From contig JBIKUK010000001.1 in assembly GCA_044347615.1 (NCBI GenBank), positions 299,863-363,862 on the forward strand: a stretch of DNA of 64,000 nucleotides. Reading direction: 5' to 3'. Shown piece by piece: positions 4,775 through 58,860 of the stretch. Made by a program: the position numbers and the translations under genes. The notes under the pieces are model-generated. The model searched no databases. It was not told the origin of the DNA and saw only the letters and a list, made by a program, of their open reading frames with translations. Source of the stretch: Bdellovibrionota bacterium (GTDB lineage: Bacteria > Bdellovibrionota > UBA2428). The first letter of the stretch is position 1, and each line of letters opens with the position of its first letter.

Positions 4775-4848
4775 TGGAGGCGGCACCCGGATTTGAACCG
4801 GGGGTGAAGCTTTTGCAGAGCCTTGCCTTACCACTTGGCTATGCCGCC
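4775..4848 (-). tRNA. tRNA-Cys (anticodon GCA), CCA encoded
   Basis: Minus strand reads GGCGGCA-TA-GCC..GGC-A-AGGCT-CTGCAAA-AGCTT-CACC-CCCGG-TTCAAAT-CCGGG-TGCCGCC-T-CCA: 7-bp acceptor stem, 5-bp anticodon stem with GCA at positions 34-36, T-arm with TTCAAAT loop. Confidence 0.9.
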
Positions 4849-45692: not shown

Positions 45693-47252
45693 ATGAAATC
45701 TCTTTATTTCATTGGAGATGAAGAGCTTTGGAGCGATGCATGGTTTAAGGCATTGGTTGAAAGCTTAGAAGCAAAAATGAATCTAACCCTTTTGGTTTAT
45801 GATTCCGTAAAAGATCTTCAAAAGATTAAAAGCATAAGTAGTAAAATAACAGTTGCTGATAGAATTATAATAAAAAAAAATCTTTCACTTAATTTAGGCT
45901 TAGAAAAAAAGCACCAGGGCTTAGTGTTTAATCTTTCAAAAGATAAAGAAGAAATAAAAACAGATTCATTTGTAGAATGGGGTGTTTCAACCCAAGCTTT
46001 TCTAGAAAAAATTGGTATTTCTGAGGCTTCTCAAGTTATAGAAGAAGACTTTTTATCTGAAATAAATATTGCTAGCGAAGTATCAAAAATTATTGAGTCA
46101 GAAGAAAAATCAACTTTAGATAGTGATGCTTTCAGTTCGGAGCTTGAGGATTTATCAAAACTTTTAGAAGCCGACTTTTCTTCTGCTTCAAAAGAGCCTT
46201 TGTCGCAAAAATCTGAATTGCAAATAGAAGATCAGCTTGAAGTAGCTTCGTTTGAAAGTAATAACCAAGAAAACATTGTTGCTTTAGAAAAAAATGAAGA
46301 TGAGGTTGATCAGTCATTAAATGTTGAAATAAGCTTAAATGAAGAACAACCTCTTATCGAGAAAGAATCAACTGATTTAGATCCCCAAGATTTGATAGCG
46401 GCCTTAGAGAGTTCTCCTTTGGCAGATAGCAGTTCTGTAGCAGAGAGAAGTCCGCTTATTGAAGAAAAAGAAGAATTAGATGTTTTGGAATCTTTAGAAA
46501 TTCCTTCTGCAAAGATTGAAGTCGATGTAGAAACTTTTTCTGAATCTGCCAAACCAGAGGTAGAAGTTGGCAAGCTTTTGTCTTCAATGAGTGCAGAGGT
46601 TTCAGGTGAAGATTTAGGTGTCATTAAAAGATATTCTAATATAAAAGAGCGCGAATTGAGGGAGTCACAGGCTTCAGCAGAAGCTCTCAGACGTCAGATT
46701 CGCTACTTCGATGAACGACTTAAGAAAAGTGAAGAAGAGCGTAGAAAACTAATTTTGAAACTTGAAGAAGTTCAAAGTGAGCTACGAACAACAAGTGACA
46801 AAAAAGATGAGAATAGAGCAAAGCTTAAGAACATTGAAAATCATTATGAGGAAAAAATTAAGGAGCTTCAAATTCAACTTGAAAGTTCACAGTTTCAGGC
46901 TGGTAAGTTAGAAAAAAAGCTTGAAGATTTTCGTGATCGTGTACGAAATGATCTTCAAAAAATAAGATCACGAGAAAGGGAGCTTGCAAGCCGCCTCGAG
47001 ATACAAAAGCGAGATGCTGAAGCCTTATTAAGTGCTAAAGATGAGCGTCTTCTTAATCAAAAGAGAGACATAGATAGATTAGAGTTTGAAATTGACAAGT
47101 TACGCGAACGCCTTCTTGATAACGTTAACAGTAGCGAAGAGAGAAGGAAAAGGATAACAAGATCTCTCCAATCGCTAAAACTTGCTCAGAGTGTTCTTTC
47201 TGGCTTAGATGAAGAGACTTCAGAAAAGGATGAAAAAAGTAAGGTAGCCTAG
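45693..47252 (+). CDS. hypothetical acidic coiled-coil protein
   Basis: 519 aa; Glu/Ser/Leu-rich N-terminal half, long heptad-like charged C-terminal half; no nucleotide-binding motif seen. Confidence 0.5.
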   Translation: MKSLYFIGDEELWSDAWFKALVESLEAKMNLTLLVYDSVKDLQKIKSISSKITVADRIIIKKNLSLNLGLEKKHQGLVFNLSKDKEEIKTDSFVEWGVSTQAFLEKIGISEASQVIEEDFLSEINIASEVSKIIESEEKSTLDSDAFSSELEDLSKLLEADFSSASKEPLSQKSELQIEDQLEVASFESNNQENIVALEKNEDEVDQSLNVEISLNEEQPLIEKESTDLDPQDLIAALESSPLADSSSVAERSPLIEEKEELDVLESLEIPSAKIEVDVETFSESAKPEVEVGKLLSSMSAEVSGEDLGVIKRYSNIKERELRESQASAEALRRQIRYFDERLKKSEEERRKLILKLEEVQSELRTTSDKKDENRAKLKNIENHYEEKIKELQIQLESSQFQAGKLEKKLEDFRDRVRNDLQKIRSRERELASRLEIQKRDAEALLSAKDERLLNQKRDIDRLEFEIDKLRERLLDNVNSSEERRKRITRSLQSLKLAQSVLSGLDEETSEKDEKSKVA

Positions 47253-47254
47253 GA

Positions 47255-48352
47255 GTGAGCTCCATGAAAAAAATTAAAATTATTGTTTCAGACTTTCATC
47301 TTGGAAAAGGCATTTACTTGTCAGACGGTTCAGTCAATGTTCTTGAAGAATTCTTTGGGGACAGGCAATGGGAGGAGTTTCTTAACCATTTTAGCGATGG
47401 TCCTTACAAAGACATGGAAGTTGAATTGGTTTTGAACGGAGATATTTTTGATTTAATTAAAGTTGATTATAGAGGATATTATTCACCCATTTTGACTGAA
47501 GCAATCTCCGTTGAAAAGCTTCAATCTGTTCTAGACGGGCATCCTGTTTTTGTAGCAGCTCTAAAGAAATTTGGCTCTATAGCTCAACACAAAATCACCT
47601 ATGTCGTCGGCAATCATGATGTTGAAATGATTTGGCCACGATGCCAAGAGTTGTTTTCACGAAGTATAGGATGTGAGGTCCAATTTTTTAATTTTAGTTA
47701 CATAGATGAAGGTGTTCACGTTGAACATGGGCAACAGTTCGAAAATACGAATCGCGTTAATCCTAAGCAAATGTATATTACCAAAAATCTCCGTGAACCA
47801 ATTATAAATTTGCCCTGGGGAAGCCATTTTGTCATAAATTACGTTATCCCCATTAAAATGCAAAGAATTGCAGTTGATAGAGTTCGTCCTGTTAGCGCTC
47901 TTATAAGATGGAGTTTGTGGCACGACACCACATGGTGCTTAAAAAACATATTTCGAGTTCTATTATATTTTTTTGGAACAAGATTTTCTAAATCAATTTA
48001 TAGAACGACAAATCTAATGACGACTTTAAAAATTTTTAAGGAGCTATTTCGTGCTCCTCAGTTACTTGATGCTGCTAAGGATATTTTTCAGAGAAACAAT
48101 GATGTTAAAACAGTTGTCATGGGGCACACGCATGTTTTCGATACCCGCCAATTTCATGAAGGAAAGCAGTATTTAAATACAGGGACATGGACTGAGGTCA
48201 CAAGCTTAGATCTCAATAGCTTTGGTCGATACACAAAGTTTCACTATGCTTTAATTGAACTAGAAAAAGACTCAGAAGGATTAAAAGTTAATGCAAATTT
48301 GCGTGAATGGAGAGGCAAGTGGCATGAAGATGTTTCGCATCAAATGGGCTAA
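47255..48352 (+). CDS. calcineurin-like metallophosphoesterase
   Basis: 365 aa; motifs DFHLG, GDIFD, GNHD, GHTH in the canonical order of the metallophosphoesterase fold; starts 2 nt after the coiled-coil gene. Confidence 0.8.
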   Translation: MSSMKKIKIIVSDFHLGKGIYLSDGSVNVLEEFFGDRQWEEFLNHFSDGPYKDMEVELVLNGDIFDLIKVDYRGYYSPILTEAISVEKLQSVLDGHPVFVAALKKFGSIAQHKITYVVGNHDVEMIWPRCQELFSRSIGCEVQFFNFSYIDEGVHVEHGQQFENTNRVNPKQMYITKNLREPIINLPWGSHFVINYVIPIKMQRIAVDRVRPVSALIRWSLWHDTTWCLKNIFRVLLYFFGTRFSKSIYRTTNLMTTLKIFKELFRAPQLLDAAKDIFQRNNDVKTVVMGHTHVFDTRQFHEGKQYLNTGTWTEVTSLDLNSFGRYTKFHYALIELEKDSEGLKVNANLREWRGKWHEDVSHQMG

Positions 48353-49130
48353 CCTTTTTTTATTTTTTATATGTTTTAATCTTTTTGGAAATCAAAAAAA
48401 CACTTCAGCCTATATTCTAGAAGTTAAAAAAGCTTCAAAGCTTTATGATGTCCCCTCAGCAAAAGGAATTGTTGTTGGAGAGGCGGATGTGGGTACTTTT
48501 TTAATTTTTTTAGAAGAATCCAAAAAAGGACTTTGGATTAAAGTTCAGGATTCAGATGGCTTAAGCGGATGGCTTCCTAAAGATAGAACGGATTATGAAG
48601 ATATAGAAAGGTCTGTCCTTGATTCACAAAACTCAGAGTCTGTTAAAGGAAATTCTAGGGAAAGTTTGAAACAAAATTCAAATGATCGTGAAAAAACGTA
48701 TTTTGAGTCTCCCTCAAATTATAGGATTTCACCTTTTTTTAGGATTTACTCTAAGGCGATAATGGGTAGATATGAAGCAGGTATTCGTTTTGATCTAAAA
48801 ATGCCATCAGCTGATTTATCTACTAAATCTTCGAAGGTTAATTTACTTTCTTTTGATGCAGGAATTCCCTTTAATTCTAAAGAATCCTCTTATGGGTATT
48901 CAGGAGCAATACGTTTTGGGATGAAAAAATTTTTTTTACAGAACTTTTTTTATCTTTTCGATTATGGCTATTCTGTATTAAGTAGCAATTCACAGCTTCA
49001 TCATCATTTGTCTTTAGGTTTAAGTACAGGAGTTGATGTTTATCCTTTTGATATAAAAACTCGTCTTGGATTTAATATATTTTCAGGATCTAATGCTACT
49101 TTAGAGGTACAAATAGGATGCCGTTTTTAA
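48324..49130 (+). CDS. secreted protein with SH3b-like N-terminal region and beta-barrel-like C-terminus ending in Phe
   Basis: Internal ATG at 48324 gives MKMFRIKWANLFLFFICFNLFG signal peptide (track start 48291); alternating-hydrophobic C-terminal strands and a terminal aromatic residue. Confidence 0.45.
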   Translation: MKMFRIKWANLFLFFICFNLFGNQKNTSAYILEVKKASKLYDVPSAKGIVVGEADVGTFLIFLEESKKGLWIKVQDSDGLSGWLPKDRTDYEDIERSVLDSQNSESVKGNSRESLKQNSNDREKTYFESPSNYRISPFFRIYSKAIMGRYEAGIRFDLKMPSADLSTKSSKVNLLSFDAGIPFNSKESSYGYSGAIRFGMKKFFLQNFFYLFDYGYSVLSSNSQLHHHLSLGLSTGVDVYPFDIKTRLGFNIFSGSNATLEVQIGCRF

Positions 49131-49567
49131 TTGTTCTTTTATCTTTTTTTAGTTTTTTTTCATACTCTTCACAGCCAGAGGGGCTTGTTTTGAAGCCTCC
49201 AGCAGATCCTGTGCCAAGAAGAATATTAAGAAATAAGAATATTACATTTGTCGATGAAGAGAATTTAAATAAAAAAGTTAAAGTGCAAACCAATGATAAA
49301 GTTCTCTTGCACGAAACAAAGTATAGGGTAAAGGGTAGGAGTCGACCAAGCCGAACTGGGAGTGTGGTTGCAGTTATAGATAGTGGAGAAATTGTTGAGG
49401 CGATAAAAGATTCAGAAGATGGAAGGTGGAAAGCTGTTTATTTCAAAAAAAATGACATAAAAGTTTGGGTTCCAATATCAGCTCTTTCCAAAAAAAAATC
49501 GATCAATTCAAATCAATCTTCGTCTGATTTGGATGAATTGGCTGAAGAGGAAAGCCCAGATGATTGA
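49118..49567 (+). CDS. hypothetical secreted protein with SH3b-like segment
   Basis: 149 aa; signal peptide; GSVVAVIDSGEIVEAIKDSEDGRWKAVYF resembles a bacterial SH3 core; acidic C-terminus. Confidence 0.4.
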   Translation: MPFLIVLLSFFSFFSYSSQPEGLVLKPPADPVPRRILRNKNITFVDEENLNKKVKVQTNDKVLLHETKYRVKGRSRPSRTGSVVAVIDSGEIVEAIKDSEDGRWKAVYFKKNDIKVWVPISALSKKKSINSNQSSSDLDELAEEESPDD

Positions 49568-51408
49568 ATTATCTCCTCCGATAATTTCTTAATTTCGTGA
49601 AAAGAAATATTTGAGTCTAGGGAGTTTTTTTGGAATCCAAATCGCTTCTCCTCCAATTTCTTAAAGAGTTCCCGAAGTTTGTTTATTTTTGGATGAGTGG
49701 AGACGTGACAAACATTCAAAAGCATAGTCATTAACTCATCAAAAGAGGCTTCATTTTTTGAAAGTTTTGCAAATCTTAATATTATCCACTCCTCTATGTA
49801 TCCTAGTAATTGTACCAAATTCAAGTCTGGTTGCTTGTTGATTTTCTTTTCAATAAATATCCAAGGATAATTCTGTAAAAGTCGATCTTCTTCCTCTCTT
49901 TTTCTTCTTTGAATAAAAAATAGTGAGGCTAGAGCATAAAGAAAGGCGGGTATTGTCCATACGAAGATTGAAATAGATGTTTTATCTAAGTTTACAAATT
50001 CTTGAGTTCCAGCAAAAATAATACTTTTTCCTTTCTTTTCTTCTGTAAATGGTTTGTTTGAAGGTTCAATGTTTAGTTCAATCGGAGGAATCGGAATTGT
50101 TTCGTATGATTTCTTATCGGGGTCAAAGTAAGACCAAGAGTTAGCTGCTATTTTATAGTCACCTGAATTTTGAGGAACTATTAATACTTCAAAATCCTTA
50201 TAGCCTTCTGATCTATCATTTGTTTCGTAGTTTGTAGCGGTTCTGCTTTTTTGAAGAGAGGAGGGAAGATTTAGTTCGGGTTCTTGAAGTCCTTTTATGT
50301 TTCCTTTGCCCTCAATCCTCAATTTTAAGTTGAAAGCTTCATTTTGAACAAGTTTTTGATTTGGTTGTTCGAGTGATATTTTATAGGTTCCAACTGGTAT
50401 ATTATTTTGACTAATGGAAGCTGGTCTGGGTGGTAAAGGTATAACCGTTACAGGAATGGAACCAGATGTTTTGTTGAATAGTTGATTCTGGCCTAGCGTT
50501 AGTTGTGGGTTTTGCATTTGTTCTAGCATCTGAAATATATCAGTATCCACTTCGAACCTCATTTTAAGTGGATCTATAAGAAGTTCACCGCTTTTTATAG
50601 GAAATAGTGCAAATCTAATAATCTCTGCTTTAAAGTAATTGTTGTTCCTATATTCAGTTCTTTCAGGACGCCAGTTTTTAGGAATAAAGAGTTGTTCTTT
50701 TAAGAAATCTTTAAATGTTGGAAAAGAACCAAATTCTAAGTTTCTAAATATATTTTCATTTGTATAAATATAAAACGGAAGCGTAATTAGCTCGCCCACA
50801 AAGACCTGTGTCTTAGAGGGTTCTGCTACAACAAAAACATCAAGCTGTTTATTTTTATTTTCTGGCTCAATTCTGTTGAGAGGTTTTTCTTCATCAAGTT
50901 CAAAAAGATTAAAAAATGGAAGTCTTGTGTTGGGTTGAACCTGCGGTAATTGCTGTTTCGGTCTTAGACTTTTTACGATTATAGATGCTTCATCAATATT
51001 AAAAGTTTTGTTAGGTGCTGAAATTATAATTTTAGGTGTTTTGATTTCCCCTATCTTTAGGGGTACAAGGGTTAACTTTAATAATGAACTAGATTTACGA
51101 GAAGATTTTCCATTAACAAAAAATGTCTGAGTTTTTTTTAAAATCTGTGGTGCAGAGATTTCCCAGCTTTGACTTTTGTCTTCAATTGATTTCAACGAAA
51201 GATCTAACGGAGTCGATTCTTTGCTATCAATTTGAAAGCTAACTGTTATGGTTTGTCCTGAGCTTTCCCTAGGTTCAATTTTAATTTGAACATTGTTGGA
51301 TGGATCTTCTTTTGATGAAACAAGATCAGAGAAATTTATAAGAGTAAAAAAAATGATAAGTTTAATTTTTTTCATATTACTTCGATTACCATGGCTTAGA
51401 AGAGCCAT
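49513..51408 (-). CDS. BatD-like protein (signal peptide, large extracytoplasmic domain, C-terminal TM)
   Basis: 631 aa; position as last gene of the MoxR/BatA/BatB operon; single TM near the C-terminus (FVWTIPAFLYALASLFFI). Confidence 0.55.
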   Translation of the reverse strand: MALLSHGNRSNMKKIKLIIFFTLINFSDLVSSKEDPSNNVQIKIEPRESSGQTITVSFQIDSKESTPLDLSLKSIEDKSQSWEISAPQILKKTQTFFVNGKSSRKSSSLLKLTLVPLKIGEIKTPKIIISAPNKTFNIDEASIIVKSLRPKQQLPQVQPNTRLPFFNLFELDEEKPLNRIEPENKNKQLDVFVVAEPSKTQVFVGELITLPFYIYTNENIFRNLEFGSFPTFKDFLKEQLFIPKNWRPERTEYRNNNYFKAEIIRFALFPIKSGELLIDPLKMRFEVDTDIFQMLEQMQNPQLTLGQNQLFNKTSGSIPVTVIPLPPRPASISQNNIPVGTYKISLEQPNQKLVQNEAFNLKLRIEGKGNIKGLQEPELNLPSSLQKSRTATNYETNDRSEGYKDFEVLIVPQNSGDYKIAANSWSYFDPDKKSYETIPIPPIELNIEPSNKPFTEEKKGKSIIFAGTQEFVNLDKTSISIFVWTIPAFLYALASLFFIQRRKREEEDRLLQNYPWIFIEKKINKQPDLNLVQLLGYIEEWIILRFAKLSKNEASFDELMTMLLNVCHVSTHPKINKLRELFKKLEEKRFGFQKNSLDSNISFHEIKKLSEEIIQSSGLSSSANSSKSDED

Positions 51409-53218
51409 TTTGCTTACCTAGCTCATTACCTTTTTTCTGAGATTCACTTTTTAATTTCTTTTTAATAACTTTTCGCTCTTCACTGCTGATGCTTTGCATG
51501 ATTTGTTTTACTTCATCAGGCGTATAGTTCTTACCTCTGTAGTCTTGAGGCTTTTTATCTTCATCGTTTGGATCTTGGCTTTTATTGGATTTTCCTTGGT
51601 TATTAGATTTTCCTTGACCTTGATTTCCGCCACCGCTTCCTTGCTTTTGAGAGTTTTGTTTTAATAAACGCGCAAGATTGTGTCGGATTATGGGATCTAG
51701 CGTTTTTGAGGGAGGGTCGTTAAGTGCATTATAGTAGCTTTCAATTGCTGCCTGAGTTTTTTTACCCAGTTCGTAGGCTTGAGCAAGTTGGTAAAACCAT
51801 TTTTTTTTATCCAAAGGATCGGGATCTTTTTTGGCCAAAGGCTCTAAGATCTTTGAAATCTCTAGAGCTTCCTCTTCTACAGGGCTTAGGTCTAATCCTT
51901 CTTTTGTCTGCAGATATAATTGTTTATTTTCTATCTGTTTCAGTCGAGATGTTATCCAGTTAAAGATATATTTTTTTTCATTTGATTCACGGTTAAGAGC
52001 TTTTTCAAAAAGCTCTTGTGCGTAATCGAATTTCTTTAGATTGAAAAAGAAGACTCCAATATTATTTTGTAAGCTATCCAAAGTAGTGGAAGCTTGTAAT
52101 GTTTTTTGTGAAAAAAGGGCAATAGCAAAGACAACCTTGGACGAGATTTTTAGAAATTTGTTTCTGTAGTATAAAAAAACTCCCCCCGTCTCAGTTGTTA
52201 TCCACTCTAAAAGTAAAAGAATAATTCCAATAAGAAGAGGAATTTGAAATTTTTCTTCTTTTTCAACTTGGACGCCTTCCTCTTTAAGTTTAAACTCTAA
52301 TTTTTTTAAGTTTTCAGCAAAACTTACTTTAAAGTTTGAAGACTCATCCGCTATGTAAACTTGACCATTAGTTTTCTCTGCTAGTTTTGTTACAAAACTT
52401 TTTTCAGCTTTAGTTTTTGCATCTAAACCCGTTTCTGGGTCTTTTACAAATCCCAAACCGTGACCGTCTTTATCTTTTTGAGGAATAGGGGTGCCTTGTT
52501 TTTTGCCAATTAAAAAAGTTGAGATGGGAATTTTATTCCTGATGAGGCCTTTTATAATGCTTGATTCAATTTGGTTACTGTCATCACCATCGGTGACAAG
52601 GAGTATTGACCCCGCAGTATTTTCTTTTTCGTCATCGTTTTTGGTATCAGTAATATCCTTATACCCTAGGGCCTCCGCGCAAGTTATTACTGCGCCTTGG
52701 ATAAAAGTTGAGGGAAGGCTTACAAAGCTGGGGTTTAGGGGGTTTAGGTAGTCTGCAATAGCATCTAAATCTGAAGTAAGAGGTGCTGCGATAAAAGCAC
52801 CTCCTGCAAATCCGACAAGAGTAACTTTTGTTTTATTTAGATTTTCAAGAAGAAGTATGAGCTCTCTTTTTGCGTATTCCAAACGATTGGGATTCATATC
52901 TTCTGCATGCATACTTTGAGAAAGATCAAGCGCTATGCATAGGTCTGAACCCACGACTTTTTTTATGCTGTGTTTGGCTCCCCACTTAGGTCGCATAAGA
53001 CTAAAAGCAATCAAAGTAATTCCTAAAATAAAAAGAAATTCTTTGAAAACTCTATTTTTGGGTAATTTTTGAGTTTGAGAAACTTCAAGTGTTTTGGAGG
53101 CCTGTATGATTTGCGAGTATTTTTTTCTCAAAAAATGAGTTTTGAAAATTAAATATATTAAACATCCGACTATCAAAAATAAAAAGCTAAATTCTGGTCT
53201 ATGAAATTCAATATTCAT
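51386..53218 (-). CDS. BatB-like protein: 2 TM + vWA domain + TPR-like region + Lys/Gly-rich tail
   Basis: 610 aa; vWA MIDAS context (ALDLSQSMHAED...LLVTDGDDSN); TPR-like helices; low-complexity basic C-terminus. Confidence 0.7.
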   Translation of the reverse strand: MNIEFHRPEFSFLFLIVGCLIYLIFKTHFLRKKYSQIIQASKTLEVSQTQKLPKNRVFKEFLFILGITLIAFSLMRPKWGAKHSIKKVVGSDLCIALDLSQSMHAEDMNPNRLEYAKRELILLLENLNKTKVTLVGFAGGAFIAAPLTSDLDAIADYLNPLNPSFVSLPSTFIQGAVITCAEALGYKDITDTKNDDEKENTAGSILLVTDGDDSNQIESSIIKGLIRNKIPISTFLIGKKQGTPIPQKDKDGHGLGFVKDPETGLDAKTKAEKSFVTKLAEKTNGQVYIADESSNFKVSFAENLKKLEFKLKEEGVQVEKEEKFQIPLLIGIILLLLEWITTETGGVFLYYRNKFLKISSKVVFAIALFSQKTLQASTTLDSLQNNIGVFFFNLKKFDYAQELFEKALNRESNEKKYIFNWITSRLKQIENKQLYLQTKEGLDLSPVEEEALEISKILEPLAKKDPDPLDKKKWFYQLAQAYELGKKTQAAIESYYNALNDPPSKTLDPIIRHNLARLLKQNSQKQGSGGGNQGQGKSNNQGKSNKSQDPNDEDKKPQDYRGKNYTPDEVKQIMQSISSEERKVIKKKLKSESQKKGNELGKQNGSSKPW

Positions 53219-54240
53219 GGATACTTCCTCCAGATACTTTGAAGAGCGAGGCCCTCAGCTATCAGGAAAAGCATCCCAACCCAAAGAAAAAAATCAGCTC
53301 CCTCGCTAGTTTTAGTCTGATTTGAAATTTCGATTTTACTTTTTTCAAGTTGGTCAATCTCGCTGAGTATTTTACCCATTAAACTTTGGTCAACAGCCGA
53401 GTATGCTTTGCCTCCCGTAAAGTTTGAGATTTTTTCGAGAAGCTCATCGTTAGCGGCATCTGTTAAATATTGTAGGACTTGTTTTTTATTACCAAATCCA
53501 TCCTCGACTGTTACAGGAAAGGGAACTCTACCTTTTTTTCCGATTCCTATAGAATAAATTTTAATTCCAAAACCAGCAGCAATTTGTGAGGCTGATATTG
53601 GATCGATTGAGCCCATGTTATTGTCTCCATCTGTAACAAGGAGAATTGTTTTAGATTTAGCCGTTGATCCTTTAAGGTGGTTAACGGCAACAGCTAGCGC
53701 TTGTCCGATAGCTGTTCCATCTTCAAGGCCTGAATTTGAACTTGATTTTAAGTTAGCTAGAAGGAGTTTGTGATCAAGAGTTAGGGGCGCGCTTAAGTAA
53801 GCTTCCCCGCTAAATAATACTAATCCCAATCGATCATCTTGCCGTAAGTTGATGAATTCTACCAATCGATCAATTGCCACGGTTCTTCTGTTAGGTGAAA
53901 AGTCTAAAGCATCCATAGACTTTGAAAGGTCAAAGGCAACGATCATATCTATTGATTCAACAATCCTTTTTTCTTTACCAAATTTTTTCTGAGGTCTTGC
54001 AAGAGCTAATATCAAAAAAGTAAGGGCAGTGAATCTCAGCGCTGCTTGAAGTTTAAATGGAGTAATCTGTTTCTGATTTTCGGTACGAGTTGACCAGTCA
54101 AAGGGGAATATGAGACGACTTCTAAAGCGGACAGAAATTTTTATGAAAAATATAAAACATAGTAAAAGGGGAATTAAGAGCAAGAATGCTTCGGGGCTAA
54201 ACCATGCGAAATTACTTAAGCTTTGACTTGAGTAGCTCAT
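53215..54240 (-). CDS. BatA-like protein: 2 TM + vWA domain
   Basis: 341 aa; vWA motifs (IVAFDLSKSMDA...LLVTDGDNN) after two N-terminal TM helices. Confidence 0.75.
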   Translation of the reverse strand: MSYSSQSLSNFAWFSPEAFLLLIPLLLCFIFFIKISVRFRSRLIFPFDWSTRTENQKQITPFKLQAALRFTALTFLILALARPQKKFGKEKRIVESIDMIVAFDLSKSMDALDFSPNRRTVAIDRLVEFINLRQDDRLGLVLFSGEAYLSAPLTLDHKLLLANLKSSSNSGLEDGTAIGQALAVAVNHLKGSTAKSKTILLVTDGDNNMGSIDPISASQIAAGFGIKIYSIGIGKKGRVPFPVTVEDGFGNKKQVLQYLTDAANDELLEKISNFTGGKAYSAVDQSLMGKILSEIDQLEKSKIEISNQTKTSEGADFFLWVGMLFLIAEGLALQSIWRKYP

Positions 54241-55022
54241 CTGGAATTCTCTTTTTTATCTGAGGACTTAGGGATATCTTTCTTTGGAAAAGCCAGGAAA
54301 ATTGTTTTTATTTTTATAAGATAATCTTGCCAAAGTTTTGAGTTAATTGTTTTTTTGGCAAACCTCACATCGTCCGCTGTTTTTAAGACGTACTCTAACT
54401 GAGATGTTAAATTCTGGTTTTTGCTTTGGGTAAGTCCCATGGCCCTAAATGTTCCTATGAATTCCCCAGTCGTAAGAGAGTTGGTGTTTAAATTCAGCTC
54501 GTTTTCTAGGAAGTGTCTTAGATATTTATATATTTCATGTAAATGGGCACTTTCTGGATTTTGAACATTGATTTCGCAATGGAGAATATATTTTTCCAAC
54601 TCCACTCTAGGGTCAAATTTATTTTTTTTCTTTTCTTGAAAAGTAACTTTGTTTTTTCTTTTATTTATATAATAAAAGAACCCCCCAAAGACGGAAAAAA
54701 TAATTAAGAAACAAGCTATATAAAAACCTAGAGGGTAATCAATCTTTTCTGCGTTAAGAGGCGCAAATCTTTGATTAGCAACTTTTGGATCAAGTTCTTT
54801 GATGTTGGCTTGTACGGCCACATTGGAAGAACTACACGGCAATGAAAAGGAAATGGTTCCTGTTTTAAAGGGACCCAGGGTTACGACTTCTTTTTTAATT
54901 TTTAGCACCTTTGCAAGGATTTCTTTTTCATCTGGAAGAGTGTCGCCGGTACTCAATATTGGGTTCTCGCCAATAGGACAGCTTACATTAAATGTATCTC
55001 CCGCGTTTATTTCAATTGCCAT
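54237..55022 (-). CDS. hypothetical single-pass membrane protein within the MoxR/Bat operon
   Basis: 261 aa; one central TM (FYIACFLIIFSVFGGFFYYI); overlaps neighbouring genes by 4 nt at the BatA start, consistent with an operon. Confidence 0.5.
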   Translation of the reverse strand: MAIEINAGDTFNVSCPIGENPILSTGDTLPDEKEILAKVLKIKKEVVTLGPFKTGTISFSLPCSSSNVAVQANIKELDPKVANQRFAPLNAEKIDYPLGFYIACFLIIFSVFGGFFYYINKRKNKVTFQEKKKNKFDPRVELEKYILHCEINVQNPESAHLHEIYKYLRHFLENELNLNTNSLTTGEFIGTFRAMGLTQSKNQNLTSQLEYVLKTADDVRFAKKTINSKLWQDYLIKIKTIFLAFPKKDIPKSSDKKENSR

Positions 55023-55023
55023 A

Positions 55024-55884
55024 TCACGATCCTTTTATGAAGGCCTCAAGAGGTCTTAGAAATTCTTGGTTTTCATTTAATTTTAAAAAGGGAATACGGG
55101 CCATTTCAAAAAATGTTTGAACTTTGTCTATTTTTTTTCCTTCTTTTTGAACGTTTTCTTGAAAATTTTGTGACTCTGTTGCAATTGTAAAGGCTTTTGC
55201 ATTTTCAGCAGCTTCCATTTCTATAAAGGGAAAGGGGGGAAACATTTGAAGACGAGAGTGAAAAACTCCAATTGCTAAAAATTCGTGTTTAAGTGAATAT
55301 TCCTTCAGAATCCTTTGTTCGGGGAGTTTTTCAAAGTCTGAGATAAAGAATATAACGCTTTGTTTTTTTAAATAACCTCTCAGTTGTTTAAGGGCATGGT
55401 TTGGGTCAGTCCCACGAGTTTTATGGCCTGTTTTAAGTATTTCGCGAACGAGTCTAAGGACGTGGTTTCTTCCCTTTTCGGGAGGTAGACATTTTTCGAC
55501 AGTTTGAGAAAATGTAAGAAGTCCAACTTTTTCTCCTATATCCTCAGCAGAGAGGGCGAGAGTTGCAGCTATTTCAGCAATTCGATAGGCGACGCTTCCT
55601 CCTATCGGTCCTCTTCTTGCAGAAGCGCTTACGTCTACAACAAGAAAATAGTTTTTATCACGTTCTTCTTCAAAAGTTTTTAAAACTGTCTCGTTGGCTT
55701 TTGCACTTGTTGTCCAGGATATATGTCTAATGTCATCTCCGTAAACATAAGGCCGAAACTCTCTAAACTGTAATCCAGAACCCTTGAACCGTGACTGAAA
55801 TCCTCCAACAAGTCCTTTTTTTATGAGATGGTGATTTCGTATTTCAAGCTTTCGGATCTCTTTAAGAAATTCCTCAAAGGTCAT
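55024..55884 (-). CDS. DUF58-family protein (MoxR-associated)
   Basis: 286 aa; signature GSGLQFREFRPYVYGDDIRHISW. Confidence 0.8.
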   Translation of the reverse strand: MTFEEFLKEIRKLEIRNHHLIKKGLVGGFQSRFKGSGLQFREFRPYVYGDDIRHISWTTSAKANETVLKTFEEERDKNYFLVVDVSASARRGPIGGSVAYRIAEIAATLALSAEDIGEKVGLLTFSQTVEKCLPPEKGRNHVLRLVREILKTGHKTRGTDPNHALKQLRGYLKKQSVIFFISDFEKLPEQRILKEYSLKHEFLAIGVFHSRLQMFPPFPFIEMEAAENAKAFTIATESQNFQENVQKEGKKIDKVQTFFEMARIPFLKLNENQEFLRPLEAFIKGS

Positions 55885-55896
55885 GTGTTTAACTCC

Positions 55897-56886
55897 TTAA
55901 GGAGTTGGGAGCGCAGATAGAATTTTTGTAATGATTTGTTGAGCGGTAACTTCTTGAGCCTCTGCTTCAAAAGAGAGAAGAATCCTATGTCTTAGGACAT
56001 CTGGCGCAACTGCCTTGATGTCGTCTGGAGTTACAAAAGCTCTTCCCTCCATAAAAGCTTTGGCCCTTGAAGCTCTTGCCAGAGAAAGAGTTGCTCTTGG
56101 AGAGGCTCCAAATTGAATATATCTTTCTATTTCGCTCAGTTTTTTATTCGCTTTTGGTTCGCGAGAAGCAAAAACAATTTCTATGATGTAGTCTTTGACT
56201 TTTGAATCAAGATAGATTTCGTTGCAGAGACTTCGCGCCTTAAGAATTTGGCTGGCGCCAGCTATAGGACGAAGCGTGCCTTCTTTAGAGGAAGCTTGAG
56301 TTTCAAGAATTTTTAATTCCTCTGCTTTATTTGGGTAGGGGATGAGAACTTTAAACATAAAGCGGTCCATTTGAGCTTCAGGAAGTCGATAGGTTCCTTC
56401 TTGTTCAATAGGGTTTTGAGTTGCTAAAACAATAAAGGGCTCTTCGAGTTTGTAGGTTTCATCGCCAATGGTGACTTGCTTTTCAGCCATACACTCTAAG
56501 AGAGCTGATTGAACTTTTGCGGGTGCGCGATTGATTTCGTCAGCGAGAACGATGTTTGCAAATATGGGACCTTTTTTAGGGAAAAATTCTCCGCTTTTAG
56601 GATTGAAAACCATTGTTCCTGTTAGGTCGCTAGGTAAAAGATCAGGAGTAAATTGTAAGCGTTTAAAGTTAAGGTCAATTAAATCAGCAAGAGTTTTGAC
56701 AGCAAGGGTTTTAGCAAGTCCAGGTAGTCCTTCGAGAAGAACATGACCCCCTGTCAAAAGTCCCATGAGGATTCTTTCGATCATTTTTTTTTGCCCAACA
56801 ATTATTTTAGAAATATCTGTTTCAAGTTGATTTATGAAAGCACTTTCCTGTTTAATCAGTTCACCTAATTGATTTAAATCAGCCAT
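55897..56886 (-). CDS. MoxR-family AAA+ ATPase
   Basis: 329 aa; Walker A (GLPGLAKT) and overall MoxR-like sequence. Confidence 0.9.
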   Translation of the reverse strand: MADLNQLGELIKQESAFINQLETDISKIIVGQKKMIERILMGLLTGGHVLLEGLPGLAKTLAVKTLADLIDLNFKRLQFTPDLLPSDLTGTMVFNPKSGEFFPKKGPIFANIVLADEINRAPAKVQSALLECMAEKQVTIGDETYKLEEPFIVLATQNPIEQEGTYRLPEAQMDRFMFKVLIPYPNKAEELKILETQASSKEGTLRPIAGASQILKARSLCNEIYLDSKVKDYIIEIVFASREPKANKKLSEIERYIQFGASPRATLSLARASRAKAFMEGRAFVTPDDIKAVAPDVLRHRILLSFEAEAQEVTAQQIITKILSALPTP

Positions 56887-57042: not shown

Positions 57043-57318
57043 ATGCCTCAAAATAAAACTACTCAGCCCATGAGCGATGTAAATTTTTCGACCTTTATTT
57101 TAAGTTTAGCTTCGGCAACTTTTATTGAAATGGGAGTCATTGAGGACCCACAAACGAAAACTAAGAAGAAGGACTTGTCTTCTGCAAAACAGCACATAGA
57201 TTTATTGCAAATGTTGCAAGAAAAGACACGAGGAAATTTGGATGATGAAGAGCGGGGACTTTTAGAAAGAATTCTTAGAGATCTTCGCTTACAATTTGTA
57301 AAAGTATCGGAGGGATAG
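57043..57318 (+). CDS. DUF1844-like small protein
   Basis: 91 aa; by-eye resemblance to DUF1844 (FSTFILSLASATFIEMG...IDLLQMLQEKTRGNL); AAGGA ribosome-binding site upstream. Confidence 0.5.
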   Translation: MPQNKTTQPMSDVNFSTFILSLASATFIEMGVIEDPQTKTKKKDLSSAKQHIDLLQMLQEKTRGNLDDEERGLLERILRDLRLQFVKVSEG

Positions 57319-57321
57319 TTC

Positions 57322-58860
57322 ATGAAATTGAAAAGTCTTTCAAAATATTTTTTTCTTTTATCAGGATTGGGAATTTTGTCTCTTTCAGCTTGTCTATGGG
57401 CATCAAATTCAAAGGGTCCTTATTGGATTGAAAAAGATGTGGAAGCTAAAAAAACTCTACAGCCTAAAGTCGATGCGATGAATGAAATGTTTTCAAGCTT
57501 AGCAACGACTTATTCCTCAGCTGTTGTAACGGTTTTGACAACGAGTGAAGTTAAAGTTCCGCAAATGCAAATGTTTCCCGAGGATATGTTTGATTTGTTT
57601 TTTGGTTTTCCGGGCGGAGGTGGCCTCCAACGTAGAGCGCCTCGTTCTCAAAAGACTCAAAGTCTTGGAAGTGGTTTCGTGATTCATCCGGATGGAATTA
57701 TAGTGACAAACTCTCATGTCATTCGAATTCAGGATGATCGTGTTGCGGATTCCGTAAAAGTTAAATTTTTAGGAGATTCTGACAAGTCTGAAGGGATAGA
57801 TGTTCAGGTTGTAGGAGTTGATCCTCTCGTCGATACTGCTGTTCTTCGTTTAAAAGGAAAGGCTAAGCCTAATTTATCTGTGATTCCTCTTGGAAATAGC
57901 GATAACTTAAAAGTTGGAGAGTGGGTTGTCGCAATTGGAAATCCTCACGGACTTTCTCATACTGTGACAAAAGGAATTGTGAGTGCTTTGGGTCGTGATA
58001 TTATACCGAATGTCTCTGCGGATTTTATTCAAACAGATGCAAGTATTAACCAAGGAAATTCTGGTGGACCTTTGATTAACATGATGGGTGAGGTTGTGGG
58101 TATTAATACTGCGATTGATCCTCGAGGACAGGGATTGGGATTTGCTATTCCAGTGAATACAGCCAAAAGAGCGATTAAGTCGATTATGGAAAAAGGTAAG
58201 CCATCGCATGGTTTTGCAGGAGTGAGTTTATTTCAAAATTTCGACTTAGAAACAGCAAAATCCCTAGGTCTTAAAAATGCAGATGGAGCCTTGATTGAAG
58301 ATGTGGTGCCGGGCCAGGCTGCTGCAAATGCAGGCTTAAAGGCTTATGATGTTGTCACTAAAATTGGAGATCGCAAGATCAATACAAATTCTGATTTTCA
58401 AAAAGCTGTTCGGGAGCTTGATCCAAATACAAAAGTCTCTGTTGAATATTTACGTGAAGGCAAGGCAGCCACAACAAACATGGTATTGGGAGACCTAGAA
58501 AAAAGCTCTCAAGTATCCATGAATGATATTCGTTCATTGTTTAAGAGTAGGAGTAGTGGCGAAAAAACTGAATCTTTCTCTATTTCTAAAGCGGGTTTTG
58601 AAGTTGTGAATCTGACAAAAGAAATTCGTACTCGATGGAGATTATCTCCAGATGTGAGCGGTGTTGTGATCAGCGAAGTACTGGCAAATACTCCAGCTGA
58701 TGAGGCGGGGATAGCTCGCGGAGATATTTTAACGGAAATTCAAAAGAAAAAAGTAACGGATGTAAAGTCGGTTGAGAAGGCCATTGGAAAAAGTGGGACG
58801 TATATTTTGAAGGTCCTGCGGGGAAATACGGTTGCACTTTTTACTTTGAAGGTAGATTAA
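57322..58860 (+). CDS. HtrA/DegP-family serine endoprotease with two PDZ domains
   Basis: 512 aa; catalytic triad context (TNSHV, D, GNSGGPL); two PDZ-like regions; N-terminal lipobox-like LSAC. Confidence 0.9.
   Translation: MKLKSLSKYFFLLSGLGILSLSACLWASNSKGPYWIEKDVEAKKTLQPKVDAMNEMFSSLATTYSSAVVTVLTTSEVKVPQMQMFPEDMFDLFFGFPGGGGLQRRAPRSQKTQSLGSGFVIHPDGIIVTNSHVIRIQDDRVADSVKVKFLGDSDKSEGIDVQVVGVDPLVDTAVLRLKGKAKPNLSVIPLGNSDNLKVGEWVVAIGNPHGLSHTVTKGIVSALGRDIIPNVSADFIQTDASINQGNSGGPLINMMGEVVGINTAIDPRGQGLGFAIPVNTAKRAIKSIMEKGKPSHGFAGVSLFQNFDLETAKSLGLKNADGALIEDVVPGQAAANAGLKAYDVVTKIGDRKINTNSDFQKAVRELDPNTKVSVEYLREGKAATTNMVLGDLEKSSQVSMNDIRSLFKSRSSGEKTESFSISKAGFEVVNLTKEIRTRWRLSPDVSGVVISEVLANTPADEAGIARGDILTEIQKKKVTDVKSVEKAIGKSGTYILKVLRGNTVALFTLKVD

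Follow-up and report, generated by a model that had tools for sequence, protein, structure and literature searches.

A canonical MoxR-subfamily Bat operon with a BatB-BatC fusion and a DUF4381-like component in an uncultured Bacteriovoracaceae bacterium

The six-gene locus described here lies in a 64,000-nucleotide (nt) stretch of contig JBIKUK010000001.1 (positions 299,863 to 363,862; hereafter the window) from an uncultured member of the Bacteriovoracaceae, a predatory-type freshwater bacterium, and its closest described counterparts are the Bat (Bacteroides aerotolerance-type) operons. According to published summaries (PMC3557215, PMC11834572), the BatI operon of Bacteroides fragilis (batA-E) is led by MoxR and DUF58 and encodes the VWA-domain proteins BatA and BatB, the tetratricopeptide repeat (TPR) protein BatC as a separate gene, BatD, and BatE. 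The cluster of Leptospira biflexa contains moxR together with batA-batB-batD, in which batC is fused to batB; its products have VWA domains with the metal ion-dependent adhesion site (MIDAS), TPRs, several transmembrane (TM) helices and, on BatD, a signal peptide (PMC3557215). Fusions of batB and batC have also been described in Borrelia, Spirochaeta thermophila and Francisella (PMC3557215). Pairs of MoxR and VWA proteins are portrayed in two further papers as acting jointly in remodelling and metal insertion (PMC9976466, PMC13036017), and a literature search found no structural or mechanistic study of any Bat complex.

The list of open reading frames contains six co-directional genes on the minus strand spanning 49513-56886, in the order MoxR, DUF58, a DUF4381-like protein (P3), BatA, a BatB-BatC fusion, and BatD. 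Starting from moxR, the successive junctions measure +12, +1, -4, -4 and -23 nt, with stop and start codons overlapping at the tight junctions. Identical gene calls are found on independent metagenome contigs of 59 kb and 32 kb, and together with the coordinates and spacings they bear out the packed six-gene unit of the original prediction, which was made from the sequence without database searches; all six protein sequences are also present as exact matches in public collections. A JGI metagenome and public sequencing runs are among the source samples. The architecture proposed at that stage—an AAA+ ATPase, a DUF58 protein, two membrane VWA proteins and BatD—is supported by Pfam, NCBIfam and PDB comparisons, and domain annotation upheld the AAA_3, DUF58, VWA and BatD assignments alike. 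Chance similarity is ruled out by the Pfam E-values (1e-64, 1e-43, 1e-16, 8e-13 and 3e-18). That the locus is a canonical MoxR-subfamily Bat operon is, in our judgement, very nearly certain; it is a standard copy, in a new lineage, of an already recognised and very widespread type. The two features that had been flagged as odd, the BatB tail and the single-TM protein between DUF58 and BatA, are standard parts of this operon family. Scans for promoter and terminator consensus sequences found sites no more numerous than in shuffled sequence, and Rfam and tRNA scans gave no match within or near the operon.

This gene order (MoxR-DUF58-DUF4381-VWA-VWA/TPR-BatD) recurs at 955661-971451 (locus L005) of CP024202, a complete NCBI genome of 5.06 Mb whose assignment to the Gammaproteobacteria is inferred from named relatives, and on a metagenome scaffold (L007). 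It is also found in relatives of the window lineage, namely L006, with a MoxR 84% identical to that of the window, and L011 and L012, with 65% identity. The gammaproteobacterial operons share with the window the same six genes and their order, the overlapping junctions and the BatD that follows, at 49% identity between the MoxR proteins. With L. biflexa the window shares the BatB-BatC fusion, the VWA/MIDAS and TPR domains, the several TM helices and the signal peptide on BatD; the flanks differ, however, since htpG lies downstream in Leptospira, whereas the window has HtrA and DUF1844 genes upstream and SH3-domain genes downstream. The B. fragilis operon is likewise comparable in its MoxR/DUF58-led arrangement and its VWA, TPR and BatD components, but its BatC is a separate gene and it includes BatE, while the window operon is without BatE: no same-strand gene follows BatD, and thus no BatE (TPR plus SH3) stands as the last gene. 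BatE is not needed for membership, because it is absent from the L. biflexa locus and from the gammaproteobacterial loci as well.

MoxR (55897-56886, minus strand; 329 amino acids, aa) matches Pfam AAA_3 at 1.1e-64 (216.6 bits; cutoff 27) and AAA_lid_2 at 6e-25 (87.2 bits), and has the Walker A motif GLPGLAKT at residues 53-60 and the Walker B motif VLADEINR. An AAA_3 domain, both Walker motifs and the AAA lid domain place it in the MoxR-proper subfamily. Residues 19-324 match PDB 2r44 (E 5.7e-106), an entry titled 'Uncharacterized protein' that we take to be the MoxR-subfamily AAA+ ATPase of Cytophaga hutchinsonii; in that system a structure has been solved for the ATPase only. Directly downstream, after a gap of 12 nt, the DUF58 gene (55024-55884, minus strand; 286 aa) encodes a protein matching Pfam DUF58 at 1.4e-43 (149 bits; cutoff 23.4). 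It also matches VWA_2 (2.8e-13) and is in that sense VWA-like, with the DxSxS motif DVSAS at residue 84, and is likely the VWA-type partner of MoxR. MoxR has no TM segment, nor has the DUF58 protein in a hydropathy scan, and both are therefore placed in the cytoplasm. PDB searches returned no structure for DUF58 or BatD, nor any of a Bat complex in assembled form.

BatA (53215-54240, minus strand; 341 aa) has TM segments at residues 19-37, 62-80 and 315-333 in the hydropathy scan, and a VWA domain at about residues 98-300 (Pfam VWA 1e-16, 62.1 bits; VWA_2 2.5e-15) with the MIDAS motifs DLSKS (residue 104), GTAIG and LLVTDG (residue 200). The BatB-BatC fusion (51386-53218, minus strand; 610 aa) is built similarly in its first half, with TM segments at 12-30, 57-75 and 324-342 and a fourth hydrophobic segment resembling a signal peptide. 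The original description of two VWA proteins with two TM segments each was right as to the VWA domain and the membrane, and wrong as to the number of segments, of which both proteins have three. With DUF58, BatA and BatB bring to three the VWA-type proteins in which the DxSxS motif of the MIDAS is intact. The BatA VWA domain matches Bacteroides-type BatA/BatB VWA structures at 1e-20 to 1e-24, all structural-genomics entries: 4rck (1e-24), 3ibs (2e-20; titled 'conserved hypothetical protein BatB') and 4jdu (7e-20; 'aerotolerance-related membrane protein'); a profile of the BatB family matches 3ibs at 1e-62. The best NCBIfam matches are the Leptospira models in the right A/B order, VWA_BatA_Lepto (NF047508) for BatA, at 202.2 bits against a cutoff of 380, and VWA_BatB_Lepto (NF047506) for BatB, at 107.4 bits against 350. 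As these scores are far below the cutoffs, the two proteins are distant orthologues of the Leptospira proteins and not members of these narrow 'exception' models. Pfam BatA_N (PF07584) had no match in the VWA proteins at E<=0.01.

The BatB VWA domain (residues ~90-315; 52274-52951, minus strand, as are all parts of BatB) matches Pfam VWA_2 above its cutoff (8e-13, 49.4 bits) and has the MIDAS motifs DLSQS (98) and LLVTDG (206). It is followed by a hairpin recognised from hydropathy and family comparison (residues 324-376; 52091-52249), a TPR-like region of seven helices (377-527; 51638-52090), a low-complexity linker of G, N, K, Q and S (528-565; 51524-51637), and a C-terminal module, TPDEVKQIMQSISSEERKVIKKKLKSESQKKGNELGKQNGSSKPW (566-610; 51389-51523), which is a basic helix ending in Trp. 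The AlphaFold model has a mean predicted local distance difference test score (pLDDT) of 74; the linker is predicted to be disordered (pLDDT 32-37), and a single long helix occupies residues 567-604. The TPR-like helices noted in the original prediction fall short in Pfam taken alone, where TPR_1 matches residues 385-410 at 7e-6 and 26.0 bits, under the cutoff of 27.8; they are supported by the seven repeat helices of the AlphaFold model (pLDDT 80-94) and by the family profile, which matches consensus TPR proteins at E 1e-56. An alignment of the BatB family (A5, 58 sequences) has D98, S100, S102, D210 and W610 invariant and Q572 and K588 nearly so.

The Lys/Gly-rich stretch quoted in the original prediction, GSGGGNQGQGKSNNQGKSNKS, is indeed present, at BatB residues ~526-547, but the tail to which it belongs is not unusual. 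We surveyed the last 170 residues of all 109 BatB matches of at least 500 aa. These homologues are VWA+TPR proteins of ~600 aa, the named ones from Gammaproteobacteria, Methylococcaceae, Mariprofundus and others, and one is labelled Bdellovibrionota. All 109 have a low-entropy linker after the TPR region, and 106 end in Trp. The aligned tails read ...TPDEVKQIMQSISSEERKVIKKKLKSE...SKPW in the window clade, ...EQWLRRIPDDPGGLLRRKFRYQY...W in the gammaproteobacterial type and ...EQAxxLLxxL...KDW in other lineages. Since linker, helix and Trp are common to BatB-TPR homologues across lineages, the tail is the family norm: a flexible linker followed by a conserved basic helix (net charge of the terminal module +5) with a terminal Trp. 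Gammaproteobacterial BatB proteins have the same construction (~600 aa, with VWA, TM hairpin, TPR, low-complexity linker and Trp-ending helix) and differ in an acidic, Q/E/D-rich linker and the terminal motif QWLRRIPDDPGGLLRRKF...W. The clade-specific part of the tail is the composition of the linker only. Linkers with at least 10 Gly per 40 residues occur only in the window's clade (nine members of 11); in the window protein and a 90%-identical relative the number of Gly is seven. Outside the clade most linkers are acidic and Q/E/D-rich, and 88 of the 109 are net negative. An 18-bp tandem duplication at 51582-51616 encodes the linker repeats QGKSNN/QGKSNK, as would be expected from replication slippage under weak constraint. 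A Pfam scan of the window BatB found no model matching residues 566-610. The precomputed domain lists of ~120 homologues (P0038-P0156) likewise contain no Pfam model for the Trp-terminal module. What emerges is a BatB-TPR fusion spread across phyla, with a common Trp-ending module unmatched in the Pfam scans that were run and an internal hairpin resembling a signal peptide.

This hairpin consists of TM3, a basic loop (YYRNKFLKISSK) and a hydrophobic, signal-peptide-like stretch (VVFAIALFSQKTLQA), after which comes S377. In every BatB inspected TM3 is followed by an RRG or RKG turn, a hydrophobic stretch and a small-x-Ala motif before the TPR region; the strict pattern TM3-R[RK]G-hydrophobic-[ASV..]xA-(2-3 aa)-WxxLW is present in 73 of the 109 homologues, and in nine of the 11 BatB proteins of the window clade the corresponding -1 residue is Ala. 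In the AlphaFold model pLDDT drops below 50 at residues 369-376. From these sequence patterns the hairpin probably preserves the signal peptide that BatC had as a separate ancestral protein, now serving as a fourth membrane segment; TPR region and tail would then be periplasmic, as would the VWA domain. The orientation of the VWA domain is suggested by the median number of Lys and Arg residues in the BatB family, which is one before TM1, six in the ~32-residue loop between TM1 and TM2, and two after TM2; such a bias points to a TM1-TM2 loop inside the cell and a VWA domain outside. This topology agrees with experimental evidence for Borrelia BB0173, the VWA domain of which was shown to be exposed to the periplasm (PMC5700661). 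A putative signal-peptidase site may possibly follow A376, and we consider, with little confidence, that BatB-C could be a polyprotein cut by signal peptidase I at the AxA motif (VVFAIALFSQKTLQA|S377), its Trp module acting as a tethered ligand of the TPR groove or of the PDZ domains of the neighbouring HtrA-type protease. If so, cleavage would free the TPR part as a soluble periplasmic protein, with the basic Trp-ending helix borne on its disordered linker.

BatD (49513-51408, minus strand) matches Pfam PF13584 at 2.6e-18 (66.9 bits; cutoff 24.1). It is listed at 631 aa and is most likely started at Met12 (MKKIKLIIFF...), giving a protein of 620 aa; a 620-aa version matching this start is present in NCBI/JGI. 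From Met12 a signal peptide, MKKIKLIIFFTLINFSDLVSS, leads into a periplasmic beta-rich region with the BatD domains and then a TM segment at 481-499. The C-terminal domain (500-631) opens with QRRKREEE, and this basic sequence after the TM segment places the last ~130 residues in the cytoplasm. Gammaproteobacterial BatD carries DUF7939, at 87 bits, at its cytoplasmic C-terminus (L005 8842-10506; L007 8836-10470), whereas DUF7939 was not detected at the C-terminus of the window BatD. Bdellovibrionota relatives of BatD have a C-terminal domain of similar size, which does not match DUF7939 either.

P3 (54237-55022, minus strand; 261 aa) is the single-TM protein that the original prediction took to be an addition between DUF58 and BatA. 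Its single TM segment and its position are confirmed; it is not an extra gene, as by operon slot and profile comparison it corresponds to the DUF4381 gene of related operons. The TM helix runs from residue 98 to ~116-124 (hydropathy and AlphaFold) and is followed by a K/R-rich stretch. The AlphaFold model, of moderate quality (mean pLDDT 68.5), has an N-terminal beta domain (residues 1-~95, with six strands modelled in 1-75) and a five-helix domain (138-243) containing TTxEF and DDVRFA motifs. In the beta domain, C15 and C63 are the same in all 47 sequences of the family alignment, and five K/R residues directly follow the TM segment; taken together, these suggest a disulfide-bonded N-terminal domain in the periplasm and a helical domain in the cytoplasm. 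A Foldseek search of the model against PDB gave nothing significant (best E 0.03), and the resemblances, to Ig-like folds and four-helix bundles, were vague.

No Pfam match was obtained for P3 even at E<=10, and no NCBIfam match; word-index searching recovered nine relatives only, all at least 55% identical, and 13 proteins only with alignment A4. When 1.84 billion representatives were searched exhaustively with an HMMER profile, 117 matches in three groups were obtained: ~45 full-length relatives of ~260 aa, proteins of 150-190 aa matching only P3 positions ~95-250, and proteins of ~300-350 aa matching the same positions. Among 42 of the profile matches that were scanned, 16 match Pfam DUF4381 and eight match a BatD domain; P0253 and P0269, at 31.0 and 29.2 bits, are above the DUF4381 cutoff (27.2), and P0161, a full-length P3 relative, reaches 24.7 bits. 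In hhalign, P3 residues 97-241 align to a DUF4381 set with 98.3% probability (E 2e-14), and P3 from residue 46 onward to the ~300-aa proteins combining a BatD domain, a TM segment and a DUF4381-like domain with 99.4% (E 1e-21), most members of these comparison sets having themselves been found by the P3 profile. The motifs LRxFLE, TTxEF and DxV(R/K)FA are common to P3 and the proteins so compared. Backing independent of the profiles comes from the operon itself, because P3 occupies between DUF58 and BatA the same slot as the DUF4381 gene in L005 and L007. There the third gene encodes 158-166 aa and passes Pfam DUF4381, while P3 is a protein of 261 aa that has a beta domain in addition at its N-terminus and matches no Pfam model. 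We thus read P3, from profile and slot, as the regular DUF4381 component of the operon in a longer form that evolves fast: its identity is 45% in a relative with 84% in MoxR, and 21% at a MoxR identity of 65%. Close homologues are found in metagenome-assembled genomes (MAGs) labelled Bacteriovoracaceae, and a scan of the genome collection with a narrow P3 alignment (A1) yielded three loci, two of them with that label. DUF4381 would accordingly count as a regular seventh-type component of MoxR/Bat operons, with a longer variant missed by Pfam; of the literature searched, only two papers mention DUF4381, and neither deals with the MoxR/Bat system.

In P0227 and P0228 a genuine BatD domain precedes the TM segment, and through such relatives with BatD domain, TM segment and DUF4381-like domain there is indirect support for a possibly BatD-like N-terminal domain in P3. 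Reading P3 as a 'mini-BatD' was unsupported, as hhalign against the window BatD gave 0.5% probability and aligned the TM segment only.

Placing the parts relative to the membrane yields a topology model that is consistent across them, with the motor in the cytoplasm and nearly all else in the periplasm, and from it we propose a tentative mechanism. MoxR would form a cytoplasmic AAA+ ring paired with the soluble, VWA-like DUF58 protein as ATPase and adaptor, by analogy with RavA-ViaA and NorQ-NorD. BatA, BatB-C, BatD and P3 would make up an inner-membrane complex with their large domains facing the periplasm, where it would present two MIDAS VWA domains, the TPR scaffold and the C-terminal helix tethered to it, the beta domains of BatD and the Cys-pair beta domain of P3. 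The helical DUF4381 domain of P3, the C-terminal domain of BatD and, in both BatA and BatB, the basic loop between TM1 and TM2 are proposed as coupling points, because they are the only sizeable surfaces that MoxR and DUF58 could reach; through them ATP hydrolysis may assemble or remodel the complex. The output would probably be envelope or periplasmic protein homeostasis under stress, and not direct detoxification of oxygen radicals. Deletion of batABD in L. biflexa gave no oxidative-stress phenotype (PMC3557215), moxR and batA mutants of Riemerella have altered heat and oxidative tolerance (PMC11834572), and reduced aerotolerance is ascribed to B. fragilis in the summary given by PMC3557215. 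Although this mechanism is doubtful when taken on its own, the identity of the operon and the mechanism together form the overall explanation that we regard as probably the best.

Several points weigh against this account. The phenotypes of Bat operons are inconsistent between species, and the surrounding genes offer no evident client protein or substrate. The evidence for the topology consists of charge bias and analogy, and P3 is without a signal peptide, so that export of its 95-residue N-terminal domain is an assumption. P3 also lies below the threshold of Pfam DUF4381 (PF14316), and direct profile comparison links it only weakly (9%, E 0.0035), though with the expected motif aligned, to the two gammaproteobacterial DUF4381 proteins that were identified independently; its homology to DUF4381 therefore depends on intermediate sequences.

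Other functions can be imagined for such a gene set. One is a dedicated chaperone inserting a cofactor or metal into a single enzyme, in the manner of NorQ/NorD (nitric oxide reductase), CbbQ/CbbO (Rubisco) or MxaR (methanol dehydrogenase). MoxR/VWA pairs with a MIDAS are the paradigm of this activity, as set out in PMC9976466, PMC13036017 and PMC12276312, and the DxSxS motif is kept in all three VWA-type proteins here; yet neither the window operon nor any of six related loci has a candidate client enzyme next to it, and the neighbours vary among lineages. Two membrane-anchored VWA proteins with BatD and DUF4381 are not known from any insertion chaperone. With no client gene linked in any locus examined, we consider this role improbable. 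About equally improbable is that the Lys/Gly tail of BatB and the beta domain of P3 are adaptive innovations of predatory Bacteriovoracaceae, serving for example prey contact or adhesion. The Gly-rich linker is confined to the window's clade (9 of 11 members), Bacteriovoracaceae and unclassified bacterial MAGs were the only confirmed sources of the 260-aa P3 in the genome scan, and the Borrelia VWA protein BB0172 is reported to bind integrin (PMC5700661). The linker-helix-Trp architecture is, however, common to gammaproteobacterial and other homologues, the composition of the linker drifts freely among clades and includes the simple 18-bp duplication, the combination of beta domain, TM segment and DUF4381 recurs in proteins of ~300 aa that have a genuine BatD domain, and the proteins of the operon are predicted to reside in the inner membrane, not at the cell surface. 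An adaptation to predation is made unlikely by an architecture shared with non-predatory lineages, in which only composition and domain length differ.

Least credible of all is a role of the MoxR and VWA proteins in conflict or anti-phage defence, of the kind portrayed in PMC7159879 for MoxR-vWA-beta-propeller ternary systems. The window MoxR does match the corresponding Pfam family, bpMoxR (2.3e-12), but with 46.8 bits against 216.6 bits for AAA_3. PADLOC returned no match for any of the six proteins, neither a beta-propeller nor an effector gene is present, and the locus keeps its synteny in divergent genomes and does not lie in a variable island; on these grounds a defence role is very unlikely, and a Bat operon is retained as the identity of the locus.

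Divergent from moxR, upstream, are a DUF1844 gene (57043-57318, plus strand) and a gene for an HtrA/DegP-type protease with Trypsin_2 and two PDZ domains (57322-58860, plus strand). This divergent arrangement is kept in L006 (MoxR 84% identical), L011 and L012 (65%), but the gammaproteobacterial loci do not have it. PDZ domains bind aromatic residues at C-termini; a functional link between the HtrA PDZ domains and the terminal Trp of BatB would be pure speculation.

Downstream of BatD lie two convergent genes (48291-49130 and 49118-49567, both on the plus strand) with weak SH3_3 matches of 26.2 and 20.6 bits (cutoff 27). The 279-aa product has a probable internal Met start with a signal peptide, MKMFRIKWANLFLFFICFNLFG, and ends in ...LEVQIGCRF, which resembles the C-terminal signal of outer-membrane beta-barrels. 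Homologues of the SH3 genes in L006 and L011 are linked to a metallophosphoesterase gene, not to BatD; since those in L006 adjoin that gene, two inserted genes away from BatD, the SH3 genes are not operon members and not a convincing BatE. The 3' ends of BatD (minus strand) and the gene for the 149-aa SH3 protein (plus strand) overlap convergently by 55 bp (49513-49567), and the C-termini of both proteins are of low complexity and rich in Ser, Asp and Glu. Further away, the 519-aa product of a gene at 45693-47252 (plus strand) is of low complexity at its centre, where it is very acidic and rich in Ser and Glu, and its C-terminal half is predicted to be a long coiled coil; the contig annotation has no Pfam family for it. 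A tRNA-Cys(GCA) at 4775-4848 (minus strand) is the sole Rfam/ARAGORN match in the 64-kb window.

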